A DNA stretch of 64,000 nt from Macrostomum lignano. Lineage: Eukaryota. Below are positions 2,388 to 55,041 of this stretch, one piece after another; the first letter of the stretch is position 1; each line of letters starts with the position of its first letter. The DNA lies in the NCBI GenBank assembly GCA_002269645.1, contig NIVC01001201.1, positions 124,001 through 188,000 on the forward strand, in the 5' to 3' direction. Both the position numbers and the translations under genes were made by a program. Under the pieces are notes generated by a model. It searched no databases and had not been told where the DNA came from. It was given only the letters and a program-made list of their open reading frames with translations.

Positions 2388-3215
2388 TTTCTAACAAATC
2401 TAGCTACCGATTCTAACAGATCTAGCTACCGATTCTAACAAATCTAGCTACCGATTCTAACAAATCTACCTACCGATTCTAACAAATCTAGCTACCGATT
2501 CTAACAAATCTACCTACCGATTCTAACAAATCTACCTACCGATTCTAACAAATCTACCTACCGATTCTAACAAATCTAGCTACCGATTCTAACAAATCTA
2601 CCTACCGATTCTAACAAATCTACCTACCGATTCCAAAAAATCTAGCTACCGATTCTAACAAATCTACTTACCGATTCTAACAAATCTAGCTACCGATTCT
2701 AACAAATCTAGCTACCGATTCCAACAAATCTATCTACCGATTCCAACAAATCTAGCTACCGATTCCAACAAATCTAGCTACCGATTCTAACAAATCTAGC
2801 TACCGATTCCAACAAATCTACCTACCGATTCCAACAAATCTACCTACCGATTCTAACAAATCTAGCTACCGATTCTAACAAATCTACCTACCGATTCTAA
2901 CAAATCTAGCTACCGATTCTAACAAATCTACCTACCGATTCTAACAAATCTAGCTACCGATTCTAACAAATCTACCTACCGATTCTAACAAATCTACCTA
3001 CCGATTCCAAAAAATCTAGCTACCGATTCCAACAAATCTAGCTACCGATTCCAACAAATCTACCTACCGATTCCAACAAATCTAGCTACCGATTCTAACA
3101 AATCTACCTACCGATTCCAACAAATCTACCTACCGATTCCAACAAATCTACCTACCGATTCCAACAAATCTACCTACCGATTCCAACAAATCTACCTACC
3201 GATTCCAACAAATCT
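2388..3215. repeat. 22-bp minisatellite (CCGATTCTAACAAATCTAGCTA) in a DNA2 intron
   Basis: Direct tandem units with C/T and G/C variants. Confidence 0.97.
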
Positions 3216-3237
3216 CGCCAGCCCGCGTGCTGCTTAC

Positions 3238-3615
3238 CTGTCCAACGTGCTCGTGGCTGAAGCTCGCCCGGCCAGTTTTAAGTTCAACTGGCAGCCGCTT
3301 GTCGCCGCCCGCAGCGTCAGCCACCAGCAGGCTGACGTCCACCTTGCCCTTCAGGCCGAATCTTCGGCTGCCGACGCTCTCCTCGATGTCCGCCACGCCG
3401 TTCACCCGCAGACCGTCGCTGCCATCGTCGTCGTGATGGCGGCGAAGCCAGTCGACGATGTGCTTGACAAACTGGGACACCTCGGCCAGCAGCTCGGACT
3501 CGGACAGTCCCAGCGCCGCCAGCTGCTGCACCAGCTGCCCGGAGTTCACTAGCTGCGCCGCTGCCGCCGAGGCTGACGCCTCCGTCACGGGAGCCGTCTG
3601 ATGGCGAACCAGCAG
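3238..3615 (-). CDS. DNA2: DNA2 exon, nuclease core (DIEESVGSRRFGLKGKVD..PVELKTG..HVGQ)
   Basis: Cas4/RecB-like DNA2 motifs GLKGKxD and ELKTG; AG/GTAAG boundaries. Confidence 0.93.
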
Positions 3616-43140: not shown

Positions 43141-43398
43141 AGGTGAAATTCAGGAGAGACCCGACGCTGGTACCTTTGACAACAGGTGAAATTCAGGAGA
43201 GACCCGACGCTGGTACCTTTGACAACAGGTGGAATTCAGGAGAGACCCGACGCTGGTACCTTTGACAACAGGTGGAATTCAGGAGAGACCCGACGCTGGT
43301 ACCTTTGACAACAGGTGAAATTCAGGAGAGACCCGACGCTGGTACCTTTGACAACAGGTGAAATTCAGGAGAGACCCGACGCCGATACCCTTGACAAC
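43141..43398. repeat. 43-bp tandem repeat x6 directly upstream of the GPCR ATG
   Basis: AGGTGAAATTCAGGAGAGACCCGACGCTGGTACCTTTGACAAC at 43141, 43184, 43227, 43270, 43313, 43356. Confidence 0.97.
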
Positions 43399-43414
43399 AG
43401 GTAAAAAGCAGGAT

Positions 43415-44422
43415 ATGTCGGCCGACAATGACTCAGCCACGCCGTGCGCCATGGAAATAGCCTATGGCCGACTCATCAACTTGGACGCATCATTTTACGC
43501 GCCGTACACCATCCTAGGTGTGTTGGGAACCGTGCTCAACTTTCTGCTCCTGCTGGTATCTCGCAAGCCGCAATCGCTGTCAAAGAGGGCCACCTTCCGG
43601 CGCCTGCTGATCATGCTGGCCGTCACTGACCAGCTCCTGTGCCTCTGCCTGCTCTGCGAGATCGCCATCTACGCCTCTTTCAGCGTCCGACTGAACGGCC
43701 AGGTGGCCGACAATCCGCAGTTCGACTTCGAGCGCTTCAACTCGCCCTACGTGTTCTTCATCGGGCCGCGCGACGTCCTGCTCAGCTGGGAGTCCATCGT
43801 GATGTTCCTGCTGGCAGTGGACCGCGCTGTGGCCGTGCTGTACCCGACCTCAGCCAGGTGGAACGGACGCAGCATCAGCCGGCTGGCGGCCGGCCAGCTC
43901 GTGTGGGTGGCCCTCCTCGGCATGGGCCTCTCCCTCGGCCAGGCGTTCGCACCGGCCTGCTCCAGCCGGCAGGTGATGCTCAAGGCGCTGAAATTGATCC
44001 TGAGCGGTGCCAACGCCGCACTGGTGGTGGCCTCGGCCGCCTGCTACTCGCTGATCTTCGTCAAGCTCCGCCTGCACCAGCGGCGCGTCGGCCAGCAGCA
44101 GGGGGAAGGCGGCGCCGCCGGCGGCAGCAGTCGGGAGCAGCGGATCGGCGGCCACATGCTGAAGATCTCCATCATGCTGATGGTTCTCACCCTGACTCAG
44201 GTCGTGATGTGCCTGCCGTTCATCCTGCACTACTACCTGGCGGATTACAGCATGAGCTTCGGCCTCTACCACACGTTCCTGCTTGGCTGCTGCCTGAACC
44301 CGGTGACGCTGATCGTCTTCAAGCCGGACATTCAGCGCAGCATTGCGCAGCTGTTCAGCCGCTGCTGGCCGCGGGCCGCCGAGCAGACGCTGGTGGAGAA
44401 TTTCAGCGTTACAAACGACTGA
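43415..44422 (+). CDS. Intronless rhodopsin-like (class A) orphan GPCR, 335 aa
   Basis: Seven hydrophobic segments; TM1 GxxxN, TM2 LAxxD, TM3 LAVDRAVAVLYP, TM7 LNP; GC-rich codon usage. Confidence 0.9.
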   Translation: MSADNDSATPCAMEIAYGRLINLDASFYAPYTILGVLGTVLNFLLLLVSRKPQSLSKRATFRRLLIMLAVTDQLLCLCLLCEIAIYASFSVRLNGQVADNPQFDFERFNSPYVFFIGPRDVLLSWESIVMFLLAVDRAVAVLYPTSARWNGRSISRLAAGQLVWVALLGMGLSLGQAFAPACSSRQVMLKALKLILSGANAALVVASAACYSLIFVKLRLHQRRVGQQQGEGGAAGGSSREQRIGGHMLKISIMLMVLTLTQVVMCLPFILHYYLADYSMSFGLYHTFLLGCCLNPVTLIVFKPDIQRSIAQLFSRCWPRAAEQTLVENFSVTND

Positions 44423-45168
44423 TACTTTCGTATTTTCGTTTGAAAATGTGTTCGCGATCGGGTTTTGGTATCCACTGCTTACCACACAGATACTCTTTTA
44501 GCAGAGAGCGGCATTCCTATTCCTGAATGTGCAGCCGATGCATAGAGAACAGGCAGAAGGCAGACATCAGCTATATCTATAGTCTATGGCTTGACTGTAC
44601 TAAATGTGATGTACAACTGTGCAGTCTTTTCAGTTCACGCTAGTTCCTACTTTTTTGTACCCACCAACTCTGTCGATGAAAATGTTGACAATGCGTAATC
44701 CTGCTTTAAAATGGCACTATTTATTGTAAAAATATCAGACAACGGAAACTATAAGCACTGAAAGACGTTAGCTATGAAAATTTAATTAATTCTGAAATTT
44801 CTGCATTGCCTCTACTCTCGGAAAGCAAGCGGCAGAGTTGCTCTAAAATAATGCCCTGAAGAGCGCCATCATTTGCAATATTTTCGTGCCCCAGCTGGCT
44901 TAATTGTGACAATGAGAATGAGAAAAAACGAATTTAGAGTAAACACTGCATCAATATGGGAGCGATTCGCAAAACCGGGAAATGCAAATTAAAATACAGA
45001 TGCGTGATGCTAATTGGCAAGCAGGCAGCAAGTTGTCAGCCAATATAATAATGGCTTGTAAAAAATGGCTGTCGTTTCAGGTATGCACAACTCTCAGCCA
45101 ATGCAAAGTTGCTTTAGTGGCGGACACCAGCGTATGCGAAAGCAGATGCAGATTATTGCAACAGAATG

Positions 45169-48100
45169 ACTACTACTAAGGACGCATTTTTCCGCCCTTT
45201 TTGGAGGTGGGGTGGGTGTCAACCCTCCTCGCCTCTCATTGGCTGGCGCGCGCGCCGCAGGGGCGTGGCGCCAAGCGCCAATTAGGCGCCCATGCCGCAG
45301 GCGCACCCTACCGATATGTGCACCCTCCCGAGCCGCAGGCGCACCTACCGACATGTACCGACATGCCCACCCTCCCGATATGTACCCCGATATGTATGCC
45401 CACCCTCCCGACATGTATGCCCACCCTCCCGATATGTACCCTGATATGTATGCAGCAGGCGCCCAAACCGCAGGCGCCCCACTCTCCCAAGCCGCAGGTA
45501 CACTCTCCCGAGCCAAAGGTACACTCTCCCGAGCCAAAGGTACACTCTCCCAATACGGGTGTACACTCTCCCGACATAAAGTGTACACTCCCCCAAGTAC
45601 ACTCTCCCCAGTACACTCTCCGATATGTGTGTACACCGATATGTAGTCAACGATACGTGCCTCTTCCCCTCTCTCACCCACATCTCAACTAGCGAAATCG
45701 AACCCAGGTCGCGCCCATACTAGGCCACTACACGGTTGTGGGGTATAGGGAGCGAGAAGTTTCAACCCTAACGCTGACGCAGCCCTGTAGCAGGGGACAG
45801 ATAACAGGCGGCCCCCTGTAGCAGTATGAGGTGGGGGGTACAGAGAGACACGGGGTGCTGGGACAGAGAGGCATGTACGGGCAGAGAGGGGTGGGTGGAC
45901 AGAGAGACGGCCACTAGGTTATTATACTGTTGAAGCATAGGGAGCGAGAAGTTTTAACCCCGATGCTGACGCAGCCCTGTACAGTGAGTGTGTACGGGCA
46001 GAGGGTGGGTGGACAGAGAGATGTGAATAACACAACCTGCAGCAGGAGCCGGATAGAGAGGCGCATGCTAGGACAGAGAGGCAGTGTGAGTCACACACCC
46101 CCACAGAGAGAGCCGTACAGAGGATAGAGAGCTCCCTCCCCAGTTGCAGGGGACAGAGAGGCAGGCAGGGTATGCAGGGGCATGCGAACAGTCAAGGGGC
46201 CACGCGAGGATAGAGTGGAGGAGCAGAGATGTGTAGGGACAGAGAGCAGGCCACGCGTGCGTAGTGTGAGGGAACAGAAACATATGGAGCAGGAGGGAGA
46301 TAGGAAGCAAACGCGCTGGGTAAGGAAGCCACACAGGGCGGTACAGTGAGACACGGGCAGGGGTGGAGCCGTGCGTGGACAGAGCTGAACGGCACGGTCA
46401 GCTGCAGGAATAGGATGATAGAGAGGCGCGGAGAGGAGGGGACAGAGAGCAGTGTGCAGGGGTAGGCAGCCACGCAGGCAGGGGAACAGAGAGGCGCGTG
46501 TCAGCCAGTTGCAGCCCGGGACAGAGAAGTGTGAAGGGGGCCTGGGACAGAGTTCCGAGCAAGGCACAGAGAGGTAGGGTCCGGTAGCTATGTATAGACA
46601 GGGACCCACGCGAGGGCAGGACAGGGGAGTAGACATGCAAGTTACATGCAAGGCCAGAGAGGTGTGCGCGGAGGGAGACAGAGAGCAGTGTGTAGGGGTA
46701 GGTAACAGCAAACTTTAGTAGAGGTGCGTGCGGGGACGGAGAAACCAGTCTGAGCGTACAGAGACGTTACAGAGAGGTACACAAACATAGAACAAAGCGA
46801 GCAGAGCACATGTGTAGGGACAGAGACGTGAGGGAGAATCGACCAAAACACACTATGTATTTTCAAAAGTTGGTTTTAGTGCAACATATTTAATAGAGGG
46901 TAGTATAATAGTATGTACATAGTAGGTATAATAGTAGTAATAATAGTAAGTATATTAGCCCAAAAGGTAGGCTAAAACAGGCTAAACTGTGTGTACGCTT
47001 CCTCATCACCCCACAAGCCCCCTCTCCCGCCAGACTCACTCTTCCAAGCCCTCTTATATTGCTGTATGCAGGAAAATATAGTGTAAAAATACAGATGTTA
47101 ACCGTTAGACCGCTGAAATCAGGGCACACTAGAGGGGGTTTCGGGGTCTGCATGCTCTATGTAAGCTGCTTGAGGAGGTTCCAAGGGCGTTGGGCGGGTT
47201 TCCATTATGTTTAGAAAAAAACTAGGGGCTTAAATACAACGTTTTATTCAAAAAGTAGGTTATTTTAATGAAATAGCTGACACAATCATTGTAGAGAGTA
47301 GACATTTTTATAAGAAACCAGGCATTTTAGCAAAAATAAACCTTCAAACCACATAAAATTGAATAAAAAGCAGACATTTTCAATTATAAACCGCAAGTAT
47401 TTTAATAGAAAAGTAAGCAAACAAGGCACAAAACCAGCAAATTTTACCTTTTTTATTTTAATGTTACTGATAAGGTAGAGAGTAGAAACTTGTGAGCTGT
47501 ACGGAGTTAGAAAGTATTAACCAATATGTATCGTATGAATTATTAGTTCAGTACCAGCCATTAGTCAAGCGAGCATTTATGAAGTTATTACGAGTGATGA
47601 AGGGATAGAGAGCTATATACAGGAAGACAGTATCCTTCTAAACCACCACGAACAGATTGCTAATAGAGATAAGCTTTGTCTGTGTGCAGTATGAGTAAGC
47701 GAAGGCGGGGCAAATACTTTTCCACATGCCGGACAGAACAGTATTGTGCTAGGATTTCTCTCGAAATCGCGGTACGTTACTAGTTTTTATCACACCATCC
47801 AGATGCGTCAACTAGTCAGCAGTAGTCATTTATATGTTATTAGAACTTACAAACCCAGGTCAGGTAAATATTACAAAGAGTATATTACGTACACACGCCA
47901 ACTCCGAATACCAAGCCATACTAGTCTACTTGCAGTGCTCCTGGAGGGAAGGGACGGTCAAGAGTTACACAACAAGAATACATTCACACAAAGAGTACAA
48001 CACTCGAGCCCCGTCCATGCGCCCCGATATGTATGATGCAGGCAACCCTCCCGACATGTACCCCAACATGTATGTCGCAGGCGACCCTACCGACACGTAC

Positions 48101-49522
48101 CCCGACATGTACACCCTACCATATGGCACTAGAGCCACAGGTGCCAAGAGCCGGCAGGGCCCCCCCCCCGAAATGTACGCCGCGGGCGCCCCCCTCCCGA
48201 GCCGAAGGTACACTCTTCCAATACAAGTGTACACTCTCCCGATATGTGTGTACACCGATTTGTAGTCAACAATACCTATTAACACAAAATTAGGCTAGTG
48301 AAAACTACTTATAGTAGGTGAAATTGCGTATATTTACATAAAAAGTAAGCAAAACACATATTAATCCCATCAGTAGGTGTAAATATCGGTGCATAATACA
48401 TATTACGAAACATATAGGTGTACGGACATATAGAATTAAGCATATGGGCAGCAAAAAACACACAATGTAGGTGCATTTTATCGATATTTTGGCAGAAAAG
48501 TAGGTGAAATAGACAAAATAGTAGGTATAATACACAGCACCTACTCATTAGTGTAGTAGGCGCTTGTAGATGCTAGTATATTGTAAAACATAGGTTGAAA
48601 TACACATACGCACAGTAGATACAAGTATAATGCAGGTGCATATGCACACACCGTAGATTCAAATTATGTAGATGCATAGGCTAAAATACACACATCGTAG
48701 AGGCAGAAGCAGGCATAATGCAGGAAAATTATGATATATATTAGTGCGTAAAAGTATCATATTATGACACACTGTAGCACATATTGACATAATGCAGGGG
48801 GAAAATATTGACAGAAATAGTGCACAATTGTAGAGGTAACAACCCGCCAACTAGTAAGGACATCCAGCACTTGTTCAGGTTCTTATTATTTCGAGACGAG
48901 TGTCATGCCCCCGCAAGAGATCTTATCAGAAATTTGTTGAACTCCACGGCAACTCTCCCCAGAGCCTCCAAATGTGAGTTTTTAACCCAGGGTCGAGTAC
49001 AAAGGGCCCGCCCACTCTTAACCCCAAGGAGGGATCCTAGCGGAAACCAAGTACAGTGCGGACGGAGAGGGGTAACAGAAGCGCTGCACCAGACCACGGG
49101 GCTGCATTCCTCCCCCGAGGTAGGCGCGTCAGCTCCCACTCCTCATTCAACCATCAGGTAAACTAAAGAATTCAAGCAGAAAGCCTTACAATCACCCGAA
49201 ACCAGCACAAGTAAGAGTACTTTCCACTAGAGAGCCATAGTGCAAGATTCGCGAGCCAAGTTGAAGCACACCAATTTACACTAAAGAAATATGTATTAAA
49301 AAGCATACCGACACCTCTACAAAAACACAGTATGTACCGTTAAAAGTTGCTTTTGGTGCAGTGTATTTAATAAAAAGCAGGTACCTTAGCACAAAGTAGG
49401 CATCAATGCAGTGCACGGGCTAAACTGTATTTACAAACGCAGGTCAACGAACCACACACGTAGCGCATAGACATAATTGTACGCATAAATGTACGCAATT
49501 TCCGGTATATAGGACCACATGT

Positions 49523-49553
<31 letters not shown>

Positions 49554-52500
49554 CACCCACACACACACACAGGCGTATTCACAGCAAGAGCTTCCTGCCG
49601 ATGGCGCCATCGCCTGCGGCGATCGGTGCTGCAGGATGCGCTGCAGGATACGCCTGTGTGTGTGTGTGGGTGTGTGTGTGTGTGTGTTTGTGTGTGTGTG
49701 TACATGTGGTCCTATATACCGGAAATTGCGTACATTTATGCGTACAATTATGTCTATGCGCTACGTGTGTGGTTCGTTGACCTGCGTTTGTAAATACAGT
49801 TTAGCCCGTGCACTGCATTGATGCCTACTTTGTGCTAAGGTACCTGCTTTTTATTAAATACACTGCACCAAAAGCAACTTTTAACGGTACATACTGTGTT
49901 TTTGTAGAGGTGTCGGTATGCTTTTTAATACATATTTCTTTAGTGTAAATTGGTGTGCTTCAACTTGGCTCGCGAATCTTGCACTATGGCTCTCTAGTGG
50001 AAAGTACTCTTACTTGTGCTGGTTTCGGGTGATTGTAAGGCTTTCTGCTTGAATTCTTTAGTTTACCTGATGGTTGAATGAGGAGTGGGAGCTGACGCGC
50101 CTACCTCGGGGAGGAATGCAGCCCCGTGGTCTGGTGCAGCGCTTCTGTTACCCCTCTCCGTCCGCACTGTACTTGGTTTCCGCTAGGATCCCTCCTTGGG
50201 GTTAAGAGTGGGCGGGCCCTTTGTACTCGACCCTGGGTTAAAAACTCGCATTTGGAGGCTCTGGGGAGAGTTGCCGTGGAGTTCAACAAATTTCTGATAA
50301 GATCTCTTGCGGGGGCATGACACTCGTCTCGAAATAATAAGAACCTGAACAAGTGCTGGATGTCCTTACTAGTTGGCGGGTTGTTACCTCTACAATTGTG
50401 CACTATTTCTGTCAATATTTTCCCCCTGCATTATGTCAATATGTGCTACAGTGTGTCATAATATGATACTTTTACGCACTAATATATATCATAATTTTCC
50501 TGCATTATGCCTGCTTCTGCCTCTACGATGTGTGTATTTTAGCCTATGCATCTACATAATTTGAATCTACGGTGTGTGCATATGCACCTGCATTATACTT
50601 GTATCTACTGTGCGTATGTGTATTTCAACCTATGTTTTACAATATACTAGCATCTACAAGCGCCTACTACACTAATGAGTAGGTGCTGTGTATTATACCT
50701 ACTATTTTGTCTATTTCACCTACTTTTCTGCCAAAATATCGATAAAATGCACCTACATTGTGTGTTTTTTGCTGCCCATATGCTTAATTCTATATGTCCG
50801 TACACCTATATGTTTCGTAATATGTATTATGCACCGATATTTACACCTACTGATGGGATTAATATGTGTTTTGCTTACTTTTTATGTAAATATACGCAAT
50901 TTCACCTACTATAAGTAGTTTTCACTAGCCTAATTTTGTGTTAATAGGTATTGTTGACTACAAATCGGTGTACACACATATCGGGAGAGTGTACACTTGT
51001 ATTGGAAGAGTGTACCTTCGGCTCGGGAGGGGGGCGCCCGCGGCGTACATTTCGGGGGGGGGGCCCTGCCGGCTCTTGGCACCTGTGGCTCTAGTGCCAT
51101 ATGGTAGGGTGTACATGTCGGGGTACGTGTCGGTAGGGTCGCCTGCGACATACATGTTGGGGTACATGTCGGGAGGGTTGCCTGCATCATACATATCGGG
51201 GCGCATGGACGGGGCTCGAGTGTTGTACTCTTTGTGTGAATGTATTCTTGTTGTGTAACTCTTGACCGTCCCTTCCCTCCAGGAGCACTGCAAGTAGACT
51301 AGTATGGCTTGGTATTCGGAGTTGGCGTGTGTACGTAATATACTCTTTGTAATATTTACCTGACCTGGGTTTGTAAGTTCTAATAACATATAAATGACTA
51401 CTGCTGACTAGTTGACGCATCTGGATGGTGTGATAAAAACTAGTAACGTACCGCGATTTCGAGAGAAATCCTAGCACAATACTGTTCTGTCCGGCATGTG
51501 GAAAAGTATTTGCCCCGCCTTCGCTTACTCATACTGCACACAGACAAAGCTTATCTCTATTAGCAATCTGTTCGTGGTGGTTTAGAAGGATACTGTCTTC
51601 CTGTATATAGCTCTCTATCCCTTCATCACTCGTAATAACTTCATAAATGCTCGCTTGACTAATGGCTGGTACTGAACTAATAATTCATACGATACATATT
51701 GGTTAATACTTTCTAACTCCGTACAGCTCACAAGTTTCTACTCTCTACCTTATCAGTAACATTAAAATAAAAAAGGTAAAATTTGCTGGTTTTGTGCCTT
51801 GTTTGCTTACTTTTCTATTAAAATACTTGCGGTTTATAATTGAAAATGTCTGCTTTTTATTCAATTTTATGTGGTTTGAAGGTTTATTTTTGCTAAAATG
51901 CCTGGTTTCTTATAAAAATGTCTACTCTCTACAATGATTGTGTCAGCTATTTCATTAAAATAACCTACTTTTTGAATAAAACGTTGTATTTAAGCCCCTA
52001 GTTTTTTTCTAAACATAATGGAAACCCGCCCAACGCCCTTGGAACCTCCTCAAGCAGCTTACATAGAGCATGCAGACCCCGAAACCCCCTCTAGTGTGCC
52101 CTGATTTCAGCGGTCTAACGGTTAACATCTGTATTTTTACACTATATTTTCCTGCATACAGCAATATAAGAGGGCTTGGAAGAGTGAGTCTGGCGGGAGA
52201 GGGGGCTTGTGGGGTGATGAGGAAGCGTACACACAGTTTAGCCTGTTTTAGCCTACCTTTTGGGCTAATATACTTACTATTATTACTACTATTATACCTA
52301 CTATGTACATACTATTATACTACCCTCTATTAAATATGTTGCACTAAAACCAACTTTTGAAAATACATAGTGTGTTTTGGTCGATTCTCCCTCACGTCTC
52401 TGTCCCTACACATGTGCTCTGCTCGCTTTGTTCTATGTTTGTGTACCTCTCTGTAACGTCTCTGTACGCTCAGACTGGTTTCTCCGTCCCCGCACGCACC

Positions 52501-54050
52501 TCTACTAAAGTTTGCTGTTACCTACCCCTACACACTGCTCTCTGTCTCCCTCCGCGCACACCTCTCTGGCCTTGCATGTAACTTGCATGTCTACTCCCCT
52601 GTCCTGCCCTCGCGTGGGTCCCTGTCTATACATAGCTACCGGACCCTACCTCTCTGTGCCTTGCTCGGAACTCTGTCCCAGGCCCCCTTCACACTTCTCT
52701 GTCCCGGGCTGCAACTGGCTGACACGCGCCTCTCTGTTCCCCTGCCTGCGTGGCTGCCTACCCCTGCACACTGCTCTCTGTCCCCTCCTCTCCGCGCCTC
52801 TCTATCATCCTATTCCTGCAGCTGACCGTGCCGTTCAGCTCTGTCCACGCACGGCTCCACCCCTGCCCGTGTCTCACTGTACCGCCCTGTGTGGCTTCCT
52901 TACCCAGCGCGTTTGCTTCCTATCTCCCTCCTGCTCCATATGTTTCTGTTCCCTCACACTACGCACGCGTGGCCTGCTCTCTGTCCCTACACATCTCTGC
53001 TCCTCCACTCTATCCTCGCGTGGCCCCTTGACTGTTCGCATGCCCCTGCATACCCTGCCTGCCTCTCTGTCCCCTGCAACTGGGGAGGGAGCTCTCTATC
53101 CTCTGTACGGCTCTCTCTGTGGGGGTGTGTGACTCACACTGCCTCTCTGTCCTAGCATGCGCCTCTCTATCCGGCTCCTGCTGCAGGTTGTGTTATTCAC
53201 ATCTCTCTGTCCACCCACCCTCTGCCCGTACACACTCACTGTACAGGGCTGCGTCAGCATCGGGGTTAAAACTTCTCGCTCCCTATGCTTCAACAGTATA
53301 ATAACCTAGTGGCCGTCTCTCTGTCCACCCACCCCTCTCTGCCCGTACATGCCTCTCTGTCCCAGCACCCCGTGTCTCTCTGTACCCCCACCTCATACTG
53401 CTACAGGGGGCCGCCTGTTATCTGTCCCCTGCTACAGGGCTGCGTCAGCGTTAGGGTTGAAACTTCTCGCTCCCTATACCCCACAACCGTGTAGTGGCCT
53501 AGTATGGGCGCGACCTGGGTTCGATTTCGCTAGTTGAGATGTGGGTGAGAGAGGGGAAGAGGCACGTATCGTTGACTACATATCGGTGTACACACATATC
53601 GGAGAGTGTACTGGGGAGAGTGTACTTGGGGGAGTGTACACTTTATGTCGGGAGAGTGTACACCCGTATTGGGAGAGTGTACCTTTGGCTCGGGAGAGTG
53701 TACCTTTGGCTCGGGAGAGTGTACCTGCGGCTTGGGAGAGTGGGGCGCCTGCGGTTTGGGCGCCTGCTGCATACATATCAGGGTACATATCGGGAGGGTG
53801 GGCATACATGTCGGGAGGGTGGGCATACATATCGGGGTACATATCGGGAGGGTGGGCATGTCGGTACATGTCGGTAGGTGCGCCTGCGGCTCGGGAGGGT
53901 GCACATATCGGTAGGGTGCGCCTGCGGCATGGGCGCCTAATTGGCGCTTGGCGCCACGCCCCTGCGGCGCGCGCGCCAGCCAATGAGAGGCGGGGAGGGT
54001 TGACACCCACCCCACCTCCAAAAAGGGCGGAAAAATGCGTCCTTAGTAGT
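45169..54050. mobile_element. 8.9-kb foldback element: 4.4-kb inverted arms, 69-bp spacer, 6-bp TSD
   Basis: Arms 45169-49578 and 49648-54050 are reverse complements with five differences found; AGAATG at 45163-45168 and 54051-54056; termini (ACT)3AAGG / CCTT(AGT)2. Confidence 0.9.
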
Positions 54051-55041
54051 AGAATGCAACACTTATGTACACAATATGTAAATTTTAGTCAGGGCTACTA
54101 CTAAATTCTAAATTAGCATTCCGTAGTTCCTCCACGTAGTTCGTTGAGTGATCCGGCAGATCGATATCTTACATGTATAGCAGAGGATCGTAGCCTGCAG
54201 TGGAAGGGGATCAAGGCCCCCCCCCAATAGACAGAAGGTTTTCTCAAGGAAGATTCCCGCGCTCCTTGGTGCTGGCGCCCCGTGGTGCTGGCGCCCCGTG
54301 GTGCAGGTGTACATGTACAAGGGCCATGACTAATCGCATTCAAGCTGCATTACTCAGCAACATTGAAAACAACACCCTAGAGCATTGGGCAGAGCTATTG
54401 GCTTCATCTCACGGCACTGCAAATGACGCAAGGTGTATCAACTCTCGCTCAGGCGCACAGCTGGGTGGCGGTTTTCAATGTACGTGTACATGTAATGAGG
54501 ACGCACTTTTTTCCAATCCCGCGCTAGCACATGGGCTCTAAACTTACTAGCCTACTAACAGTGGGCAATGGGCATTTTTATCCTTTTTCTGCGAATTGTC
54601 ATAGAATCTATACTAGATAAAATGTTTGGTCATACTAGTAGTCATAATAACATAGGCGCAGCTTTTTGGGTCATAAATCATCGCTTTCGAAGCTGGTCTG
54701 ACAGCCACCTGCGCCTCACTCAGTGTCGAGGCGGGCGCCAGATGGTCTGAGGGGATGCGAATGATAGCTTTTTTCTCATCATTTTGACAGGCCATCAAGA
54801 TTTATGAGGTCAGGGCCTCAGGCCCTATTGTTCGTGTTCACTCAAGCGTGTGACAGCTTTGACAGCTATGCGTTTTACCCCTAAAAGTACTTTGGGATTA
54901 GCGATTAGCGATTTCTCTATTCTCTTCACTTTATATTTAATAAGAGCTTTCTAGTGTATATTTTTTCATTAATTTTTGTCAATTCTACGCGAAAAGTCAT
55001 AAATCATTTTGTTGCGATTTTGATTGATTTATGGCTGCACC

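Follow-up and report, generated by a model that had tools for sequence, protein, structure and literature searches.

A gene-less palindrome in Macrostomum lignano as a probable fold-back satellite of a bipartite Maverick/Polinton

The window analyzed here, a stretch of 64,000 nucleotides of the Macrostomum lignano genome (assembly GCA_002269645.1, contig NIVC01001201.1, positions 124,001 to 188,000 of the forward strand), contains a palindromic element that, together with both copies of its target site duplication (TSD), spans 45163..54056. Global alignment of the element against its own reverse complement gives a left arm of 4410 bp, a right arm of 4403 bp and a spacer of 69 bp, with five differences between the arms: substitutions at 45229/53993 and 48975/50248, 1-base homopolymer indels near 45833 and 49112, and one AC unit at 49523-24. 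On the left the flank reads AGAATG followed by ACTACTACTAAGG, and on the right CCTTAGTAGT followed by AGAATG, the left end having one ACT more than the right. An earlier note on this DNA had described the arms, the spacer, the five differences and the TSD AGAATG, and self-alignment reproduces all of them exactly. Its further statement that there is no convincing open reading frame (ORF) is borne out as well. Eleven left-arm stop-to-stop frames of at least 100 aa that were scanned have no Pfam match at E 0.01, and when copies are compared over the arm core, 35 of 39 indels have lengths that would break a reading frame; no coding signal was found. In our reading the element is very probably a non-autonomous satellite, of fold-back form, of a bipartite Maverick/Polinton in which one element carries the polymerase and a second, bounded by the same ends, carries the integrase and the virion genes. 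The features of the element are as follows.

45163..45168, plus strand: left copy of the TSD, AGAATG, 6 bp (arm alignment and element table)
45169..49578, plus strand: left arm, 4410 bp, non-coding (self-alignment, Pfam scan and copy comparison)
45169..45202, plus strand: terminal module, (ACT)3 and then the variable 31-bp end common to family-1 polymerase and capsid elements (end comparison)
45172..45590, plus strand: segment matching the polymerase-only element's terminal inverted repeat at 76% identity (arm 4-422, E 2e-87)
45783..45870, plus strand: segment matching the integrase/capsid element's terminal inverted repeat at 94-95% identity (arm 615-702, E 1e-32 to 1e-34)
45862..46826, plus strand: array of ten GACAGAGA motifs (motif count)
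48023..48731, plus strand: further, internal copy of sequence from just inside the end of the polymerase element's repeat, diverged, with patches of 74-87% identity (arm 2855-3563)
49523..49571, plus strand: (CA)n tract adjoining the center, with its mirror image, (TG)n, at 49655-49701
49579..49647, no strand: spacer, 69 bp, GC-rich, an imperfect hairpin by itself, nearly identical in 15 of 19 complete copies
49648..54050, minus strand: right arm, 4403 bp, the reverse complement of the left arm (self-alignment)
54051..54056, plus strand: right copy of the TSD, AGAATG, 6 bp (arm alignment and element table)

The arm is a mosaic that begins like the repeat of the polymerase element, takes in a piece closely resembling the capsid element's repeat, and includes the GACAGAGA array (a motif present four or five times in the capsid element's end and once or twice in the polymerase element) as well as the internal second sub-terminal copy. 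The terminal module at 45169..45202 is likely to be both the origin of protein-primed replication and the integrase site. The left junction is bridged, with 48+31 letters, by Logan contigs from two of four runs (X1 and X2, from two studies, one of which may be the sample behind the assembly itself). Depth in run X1 is 126 on the junction contig as against 165+93 on the two flank alleles together, a shortfall that suggests, but does not show, a heterozygous insertion. One run presumed to be RNA covers nothing but element sequence and is not counted as evidence of expression. The empty target site that the earlier note had proposed to look for did not turn up, the flank pattern occurring only once in the assembly, with no pre-insertion allele.

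Both the end sequence and the center of the window's element have many genome matches. A 24-mer from the satellite core has 112 exact matches (54 plus, 58 minus; control 0), with 37 inward-facing pairs among the 100 matches listed. All 19 complete satellites have the 6-bp TSDs that the earlier note had looked to other copies for, each perfect and distinct from the others, and their lengths run from 6.7 to 9.4 kb, with 15 of the 19 within 8.5-9.4 kb. The same 69-bp spacer recurs in 15 of the 19 complete copies, which argues that one ancestral palindrome was amplified; the remaining four have re-folded centers. A snap-back by duplication of one element end followed by integration, as proposed earlier, is correct as to the fold-back palindrome, but, given the common spacer, the event did not occur at the window's insertion. 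Nor is the arm simply one element's end: it joins stretches like the repeats of two elements to about 2.7 kb of other sequence. The two arms of a copy follow each other more closely than they follow other copies. Over a 1.37-kb core 12 of the 19 copies have 0 between-arm substitutions, the nearest other copy of the window's element is 1.6% different, and of the variants private to a copy 69 are present in both arms against 9 in a single arm. The TSD is intact in 60 of the 65 ACTAC-ended elements of all kinds tabulated with both ends, a table that leaves out truncated copies reached from single ends. None of the other left or right ends of these 65 has (ACT)3, and the variable terminal trinucleotide repeats of the earlier note are thus real as (ACT)3 versus (ACT)2 in the window's copy and are not a family trait.

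A 4.1-kb single-arm version of the satellite is also present in the genome, and at one locus two palindromic satellites lie in tandem, 16.3 kb in all, inside one TSD (L039+L078, C261:123483-139760). Some related loci carry nested insertions, namely a mariner ORF in L043, ORFs of long interspersed nuclear elements (LINEs) in L056 and a P-like transposase in L180. The mariner, LINE and P-like ORFs, considered as the family's own transposase, were rejected as nested insertions, and no parent with a DDE transposase of another superfamily is involved.

The coding elements with related ends are of two kinds. The polymerase-only element of family 1 has ACTACTA ends, 6-bp TSDs and terminal inverted repeats of about 1.1-1.4 kb, and is 8.5-9.1 kb long in eight of nine copies (10.5 kb in the other). 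It encodes a protein-primed family-B polymerase (pPolB; PF03175 at E 5e-17 and 5e-13) with coding blocks bordered by GT..AG, as in an intron-split gene, and a small ORF with a weak resemblance to PC4 (Pfam E 0.034, PDB E 0.36); no integrase or capsid ORF was found inside polymerase elements. The ACTAC pPolBs are 28-31% identical to a Xiphophorus protein (E 1e-55 to 1e-99), the best matches outside M. lignano being about 30-37% identical, and a search for them in viral contigs found nothing. They have no match to local Endonuclease-VII-type pPolBs, and a possible VSR-like insertion, suggested by a motif and characteristic of the beta-type pPolB clade, found no support in a PDB search. Near-identical proteins of the polymerase element carry the label Macrostomum lignano in UniRef. 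Judged by motif, the N-terminal block would fit the terminal-protein/vOTU layout as given in the available part of PMC11071308. Searched with this polymerase, the genome yielded 107 matches, which fall at 94 places (best 102 of 174 candidates scored), about two thirds of them close to the query and about one third 57-69% identical; this more distant group is a second family, with ACTACGTA ends and a polymerase element of about 9.5 kb, with outliers. One polymerase element sits inside the capsid gene of another Polinton group, the same insertion being found on two contigs (L022 and L027; C4072:13486 and C2932:65674).

Tracing of the family-2 ends led to elements of 10-12 kb with an rve-chromodomain integrase and without a polymerase, the family-2 capsid element being about 10.2 kb, with outliers. 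The family-2 integrase marks 56 genome places at at least 72% identity (best 114 of 1600 candidates scored), and in an 81%-identity group all four loci fetched have family-1 ends like those of the window's element. Family-1 capsid elements are 10.3-10.5 kb long in three of four cases, with one of 11.9 kb that has a duplicated end; three of the four have a perfect TSD, and the terminal inverted repeats of capsid elements measure about 0.4-0.8 kb. In one natural copy the genes are, in order, a Fic protein, two unknown ORFs, a 297-aa ORF, a TBP-like ORF, two small or unknown ORFs, the integrase (rve match, E 2e-9), a likely minor capsid protein, a small basic protein, the major capsid protein (MCP), an adenain-like protease (Atlas 0.97 to Peptidase_C5 clusters) and a Walker-A ATPase. 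The TBP-like ORF matches PF00352 at E 1e-4 and the Fic-domain protein matches at E 7e-14 (L203:4942-5475 and L203:2603-3406), and the minor capsid protein is presumed to be one from its position and size. The family-2 MCP, 87% identical to that of family 1, has a modeled double jelly-roll fold (a predicted score in the local distance difference test, pLDDT, of 91) with a match to PBCV-1 Vp54 at E 7e-18. Homologs of the MCP are present on short public contigs that give no context (three at 77-79%, two at 45-46%), and an alignment search of metagenome and viral contigs with it found nothing. By tblastn there is no pPolB on the capsid elements in 11 + 5 loci. A genome search with PF21738 detected the capsids of the AGTAG-ended Polintons described below and missed the ACTAC capsid, and one with Pox_A32 gave 0 in a genome that does contain ATPases of this kind, which shows how insensitive family searches are in this case.

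Three classes of element, polymerase-only, integrase and capsid without polymerase, and non-coding palindrome, have in common a variable 31-bp ACTAC end and 6-bp TSDs, and the three-part set recurs in the second family, with ACTACGTA ends. The identification of the window's element as a non-autonomous Polinton/Maverick derivative is upheld by these ends, which it shares with coding Polinton elements, by its lack of genes and by its many TSD-flanked copies. The longer parent with pPolB, integrase and capsid that the earlier note envisaged was, by contrast, not found in the genome; instead its genes are divided between two distinct elements that have identical kinds of end. The window's element has neither pPolB nor integrase and each helper has one of them, while the virion module (MCP, minor capsid protein, protease, ATPase) is absent from the window's element and present on the separate capsid element. 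The helper segments have matching termini and complementary, non-overlapping gene content, with no unsegmented form found in searches whose counts are lower bounds, and together they amount to about 19 kb and the canonical Polinton gene set. Neither an integrase (0 of 56 places) nor an MCP (0 of 65) lies within 45 kb of any of the 94 pPolB places, and three contigs carry both halves at distances of 45-468 kb.

Similarity between capsid and polymerase elements by blastn is limited to about the first 31 bp. This end is variable, with 34 different 31-mers among 76 family-1 ends (three duplicated insertions, L027, L058 and C3051, are left out of the end-variant counts), and it is built of blocks that recur across classes, such as AGCAACGG in capsid, polymerase and satellite elements. 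The smallest difference between the ends of two classes is 0-2 of 31 nt within a family versus 10-13 between families, and the two ends of an element are identical in 51 of 62 cases. The terminal 31 bp are hypervariable and shuffled by blocks between a constant ACTAC and TTTT, some blocks being common to both families; candidate causes are recombination and an escape from small RNAs or from satellites.

The genes of both halves are under purifying selection. Between families, synonymous divergence (dS) is 1.3-2.9 and the ratio of nonsynonymous to synonymous divergence (omega) is 0.04 for the MCP, 0.10 for the integrase, 0.05 for the ATPase, 0.08-0.16 for pPolB and 0.32 for the minor capsid protein; within families omega is 0.12-0.20 for pPolB, MCP and integrase, all of these being pairwise estimates from single copies. 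In a tree of 11 rows the ACTAC integrases of both families form a clade of their own, apart from the other groups, with support of 99/98. These findings are most simply read as a single old split that both families have inherited.

Family 2 comes with satellites of its own, several of them palindromic, and the polymerase element (at C1090) and the family-2 capsid element (at C1313) occur as fold-backs too. A chimera of 8699 bp with the TSD GAAGCC (L210-L211, C428:214927-223625) is half polymerase element and half satellite arm, with two different end variants. Together, these fold-backs and this chimera indicate that template switching is recurrent among ACTAC molecules. The TSDs, the shared end variants and the chimera also suggest that the satellite would be mobilized by helper enzymes in trans. 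In this model, an excised or copied linear DNA would be replicated from its ends by the terminal protein and pPolB of the polymerase element, with slide-back on the ACT repeat as at adenovirus and tectivirus ends. Once displaced, a strand of the palindrome would snap back on itself as a duplex hairpin of 4.4 kb, restoring a duplex origin at once, and this could give the satellite a replication edge over a helper that can form a panhandle of only about 1.1-1.4 kb. The arms would be kept alike by repair or strand switching within the hairpin, and insertion of all three classes would fall to the capsid element's integrase. More speculatively, the doubling of a unit of about 4.4 kb to the helper-segment size of about 9 kb may make the satellite packageable.

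Complete Polintons also occur in this genome, in at least three abundant groups with integrase, capsid, pPolB and 6-bp TSDs and in one further complete group. Their ends read AGTAG in the six copies checked, as opposed to the ACTACTA or ACTACGTA ends considered here, which agrees with the earlier suggestion of an atypical family with 5'-ACT polarity. The ACTAC pPolBs have no blastp match to four pPolBs of these complete Polintons. The AGTAG groups, at first the suspected helpers, became less likely ones once ACTAC-ended integrase/capsid elements were found. Fold-back cassettes of 265-309 bp lie at ends of AGTAG group C, and group A ends have hairpins of about 100 bp with an inner arm ending ACTACT (L110, L113, L115, L117, L120 and L121; L090-L091 for the two groups together); it is possible that such fold-backs and hairpins were the route to the reversed end polarity. 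A 4083-bp AGTAG-ended element with a 6-bp TSD carries only an integrase and a small core-like ORF (L111-L112, C393). In another Polinton group (459-aa MCP frame; L222-L223, C593) there are an integrase and an ATPase and no polymerase match in the 20 kb fetched, where element ends were not found; this group is possibly a further split lineage.

Elsewhere in the window, a 356-aa ORF at 43352-44422, about 740 bp upstream of the element, resembles a seven-transmembrane receptor by eye and has no match in a Pfam search at E 0.01. A degenerate CCCTAA(T) array lies at 268-521, and more than 15 long minisatellite arrays are spread across the window.

Several points weigh against the fold-back satellite of a bipartite Polinton as set out above. 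The case is built on genomic sequence, from which trans-complementation and virions are inferred, and some 2.7 kb of the arm has no match in either helper. Homogenization is not obligatory, as the 40 between-arm substitutions of copy L167 show, and the 69 private variants present in both arms were mostly contributed by a few diverged copies in a non-random sample fetched from top matches. Sizes cluster loosely, satellites of 6.7-9.4 kb standing beside TSD-bearing elements of 1.1-4.1 kb, which means that a packaging size is not required for insertion. Only the best candidates were scored (pPolB 102 of 174, integrase 114 of 1600, MCP 150 of 284) in an assembly of 5269 contigs; the counts are lower bounds, and a rare joined element could therefore be missed. 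With genome searches that are non-exhaustive, all ACTAC elements might be deletion derivatives of a full-length ACTAC Polinton of about 19 kb that is extinct, rare or unassembled, an idea favored by two halves that sum to about 19 kb with a full canonical gene set, and by the mobile polB-less Polintons that, in the portion of 10.1101/2025.02.07.637071 available, occur beside complete ones in Pieris. We consider this improbable. The same split in two families near synonymous saturation (dS 1.3-2.9) would need two identical independent splits and two hidden parents, and beyond 31 bp the terminal repeats of the halves are unrelated, unlike deletion products of one element. Joined loci number 0 of 56 and 0 of 65, and selection extends to the within-family level (omega 0.12-0.20 for pPolB, MCP and integrase).

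The abundance of at least three complete TSD-bearing AGTAG groups, plus a further one, also weighs on the other side, as these could supply enzymes; the polymerase element, the capsid element and the satellite might then each parasitize complete Polintons and not each other, and one polymerase insertion does sit in another group's capsid gene. Such an arrangement is hard to reconcile with the reversed end polarity (5'-ACTAC versus 5'-AGTAG), the distinct ACTAC polymerase and integrase lineages and the end variants, which pair capsid with polymerase family by family (1 with 1, 2 with 2). Moreover, the element with a selected pPolB and the element with a selected integrase each lack exactly what the other has, and we give this alternative a slightly lower chance again. 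The palindrome might also have been folded back during sequencing or assembly, perfect inverted duplications being a known long-read artifact and two family-2 loci (L176, L179) having flanks mirrored past their ends. Support over the element's whole length comes from the assembly. This explanation is nevertheless extremely improbable for the window's palindrome, given the direct 6-bp repeat with unrelated flanks both there and at 19 of 19 copies, the conserved asymmetric spacer found in both orientations, the differences between the arms, and the left junction bridged by short-read contigs of two studies.

The fold-back satellite and its two helpers resemble Mavericks/Polintons in their 6-bp TSDs, long terminal inverted repeats (4.4 kb in the window's element) and short terminal repeats, and the helper pair encodes pPolB, an rve-chromodomain integrase, a double jelly-roll MCP, a minor capsid protein, an adenain-like protease and a packaging ATPase. 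Known Mavericks/Polintons are 13-25 kb long with pPolB and integrase on one molecule, as described in the consulted part of 10.1101/2023.08.22.554363. In contrast, the gene set is here divided between two elements, GT-AG introns interrupt pPolB, and there are no genes on the window's element; the latter is not an autonomous Polinton, and neither helper half falls under the pPolB-plus-integrase definition. The ends, 5'-(ACT)2//(AGT)2, likewise differ from the reported motifs, a list drawn from vertebrates only and comprising, in the text available from PMC8097293, 5'-(AGT)2//(ACT)2, (AG)3//(CT)3 and (AC)3A//T(GT)3. Bidnaviruses (BmBDV VD1/VD2) have a bipartite linear genome with matching termini, similar segment sizes and a Polinton-derived pPolB on one segment, according to the accessible parts of PMC4061559 and PMC8502044. 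They differ in their single-stranded DNA (ssDNA), their parvovirus-type capsid, the joint placement of capsid and pPolB on VD1 and the lack of an integrase, whereas the ACTAC pair has a double jelly-roll capsid and both of its segments integrated with TSDs. The doubled-hairpin layout of the satellite is also that of self-complementary adeno-associated virus genomes. Snap-back defective genomes, as far as the available text of PMC8235507 goes, are similar in that an end-bearing unit is doubled into a whole-length hairpin dependent on helper enzymes, while the satellite is integrated in the germ line, in dozens of copies, and goes back to one ancestral fold-back with a conserved spacer. Partial Polinton modules that are mobile or keep their terminal inverted repeats appear in the seen parts of reports on polB-less Polintons of Pieris (10.1101/2025.02.07.637071), pPolB remnants with terminal inverted repeats in C. 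elegans (10.1101/2024.01.15.575659) and transpovirons (10.64898/2026.10.13.758929). The Pieris and C. elegans cases lie beside complete relatives or are remnants, whereas for the ACTAC elements a complete form did not turn up and the split predates two diverged families; in transpovirons pPolB is joined with a DDE enzyme, whereas here the integrase goes with the capsid.

In the parts of the literature open to our search we met with neither a bipartite Polinton nor one that is palindromic over its whole length, nor with a paper on Polintons of Macrostomum, although Repbase reports, subscription papers and bioRxiv supplements may describe these families; the split helper and the reversed end polarity look new. 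Earlier screens require pPolB and integrase within 20 kb (10.1101/2023.08.22.554363 and 10.1101/2024.01.15.575659, in their available text) and would miss split elements, which may therefore be widespread and filed as fragments. The polymerase element would also exemplify in nature the replication module, mobile on its own, that the accessible part of 10.64898/2026.10.13.758929 proposes, though with the integrase on the capsid side. A 2016 review, in the portion available (PMC5094692), names as multipartite animal viruses only the ssDNA bidensoviruses and one RNA virus, polydnaviruses being excluded. It is conceivable, at somewhat less than even chances, that the ACTAC elements are proviruses of a multipartite animal double-stranded DNA virus of an old double jelly-roll lineage, with a replication segment and an integrase/virion segment that each undergo packaging and integration on their own and exchange a hypervariable 31-bp end, while self-complementary satellites, doubled in length to fit the capsid, exploit them. 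If this is true, a segmented Polinton would provide a double-stranded DNA, integrating multipartite case in a flatworm reared in the laboratory. Polinton replication has, to our knowledge, been inferred and never yet directly shown, and the three co-existing classes, with their tagged ends, near-identical arms and chimeras, would constitute a record of it.

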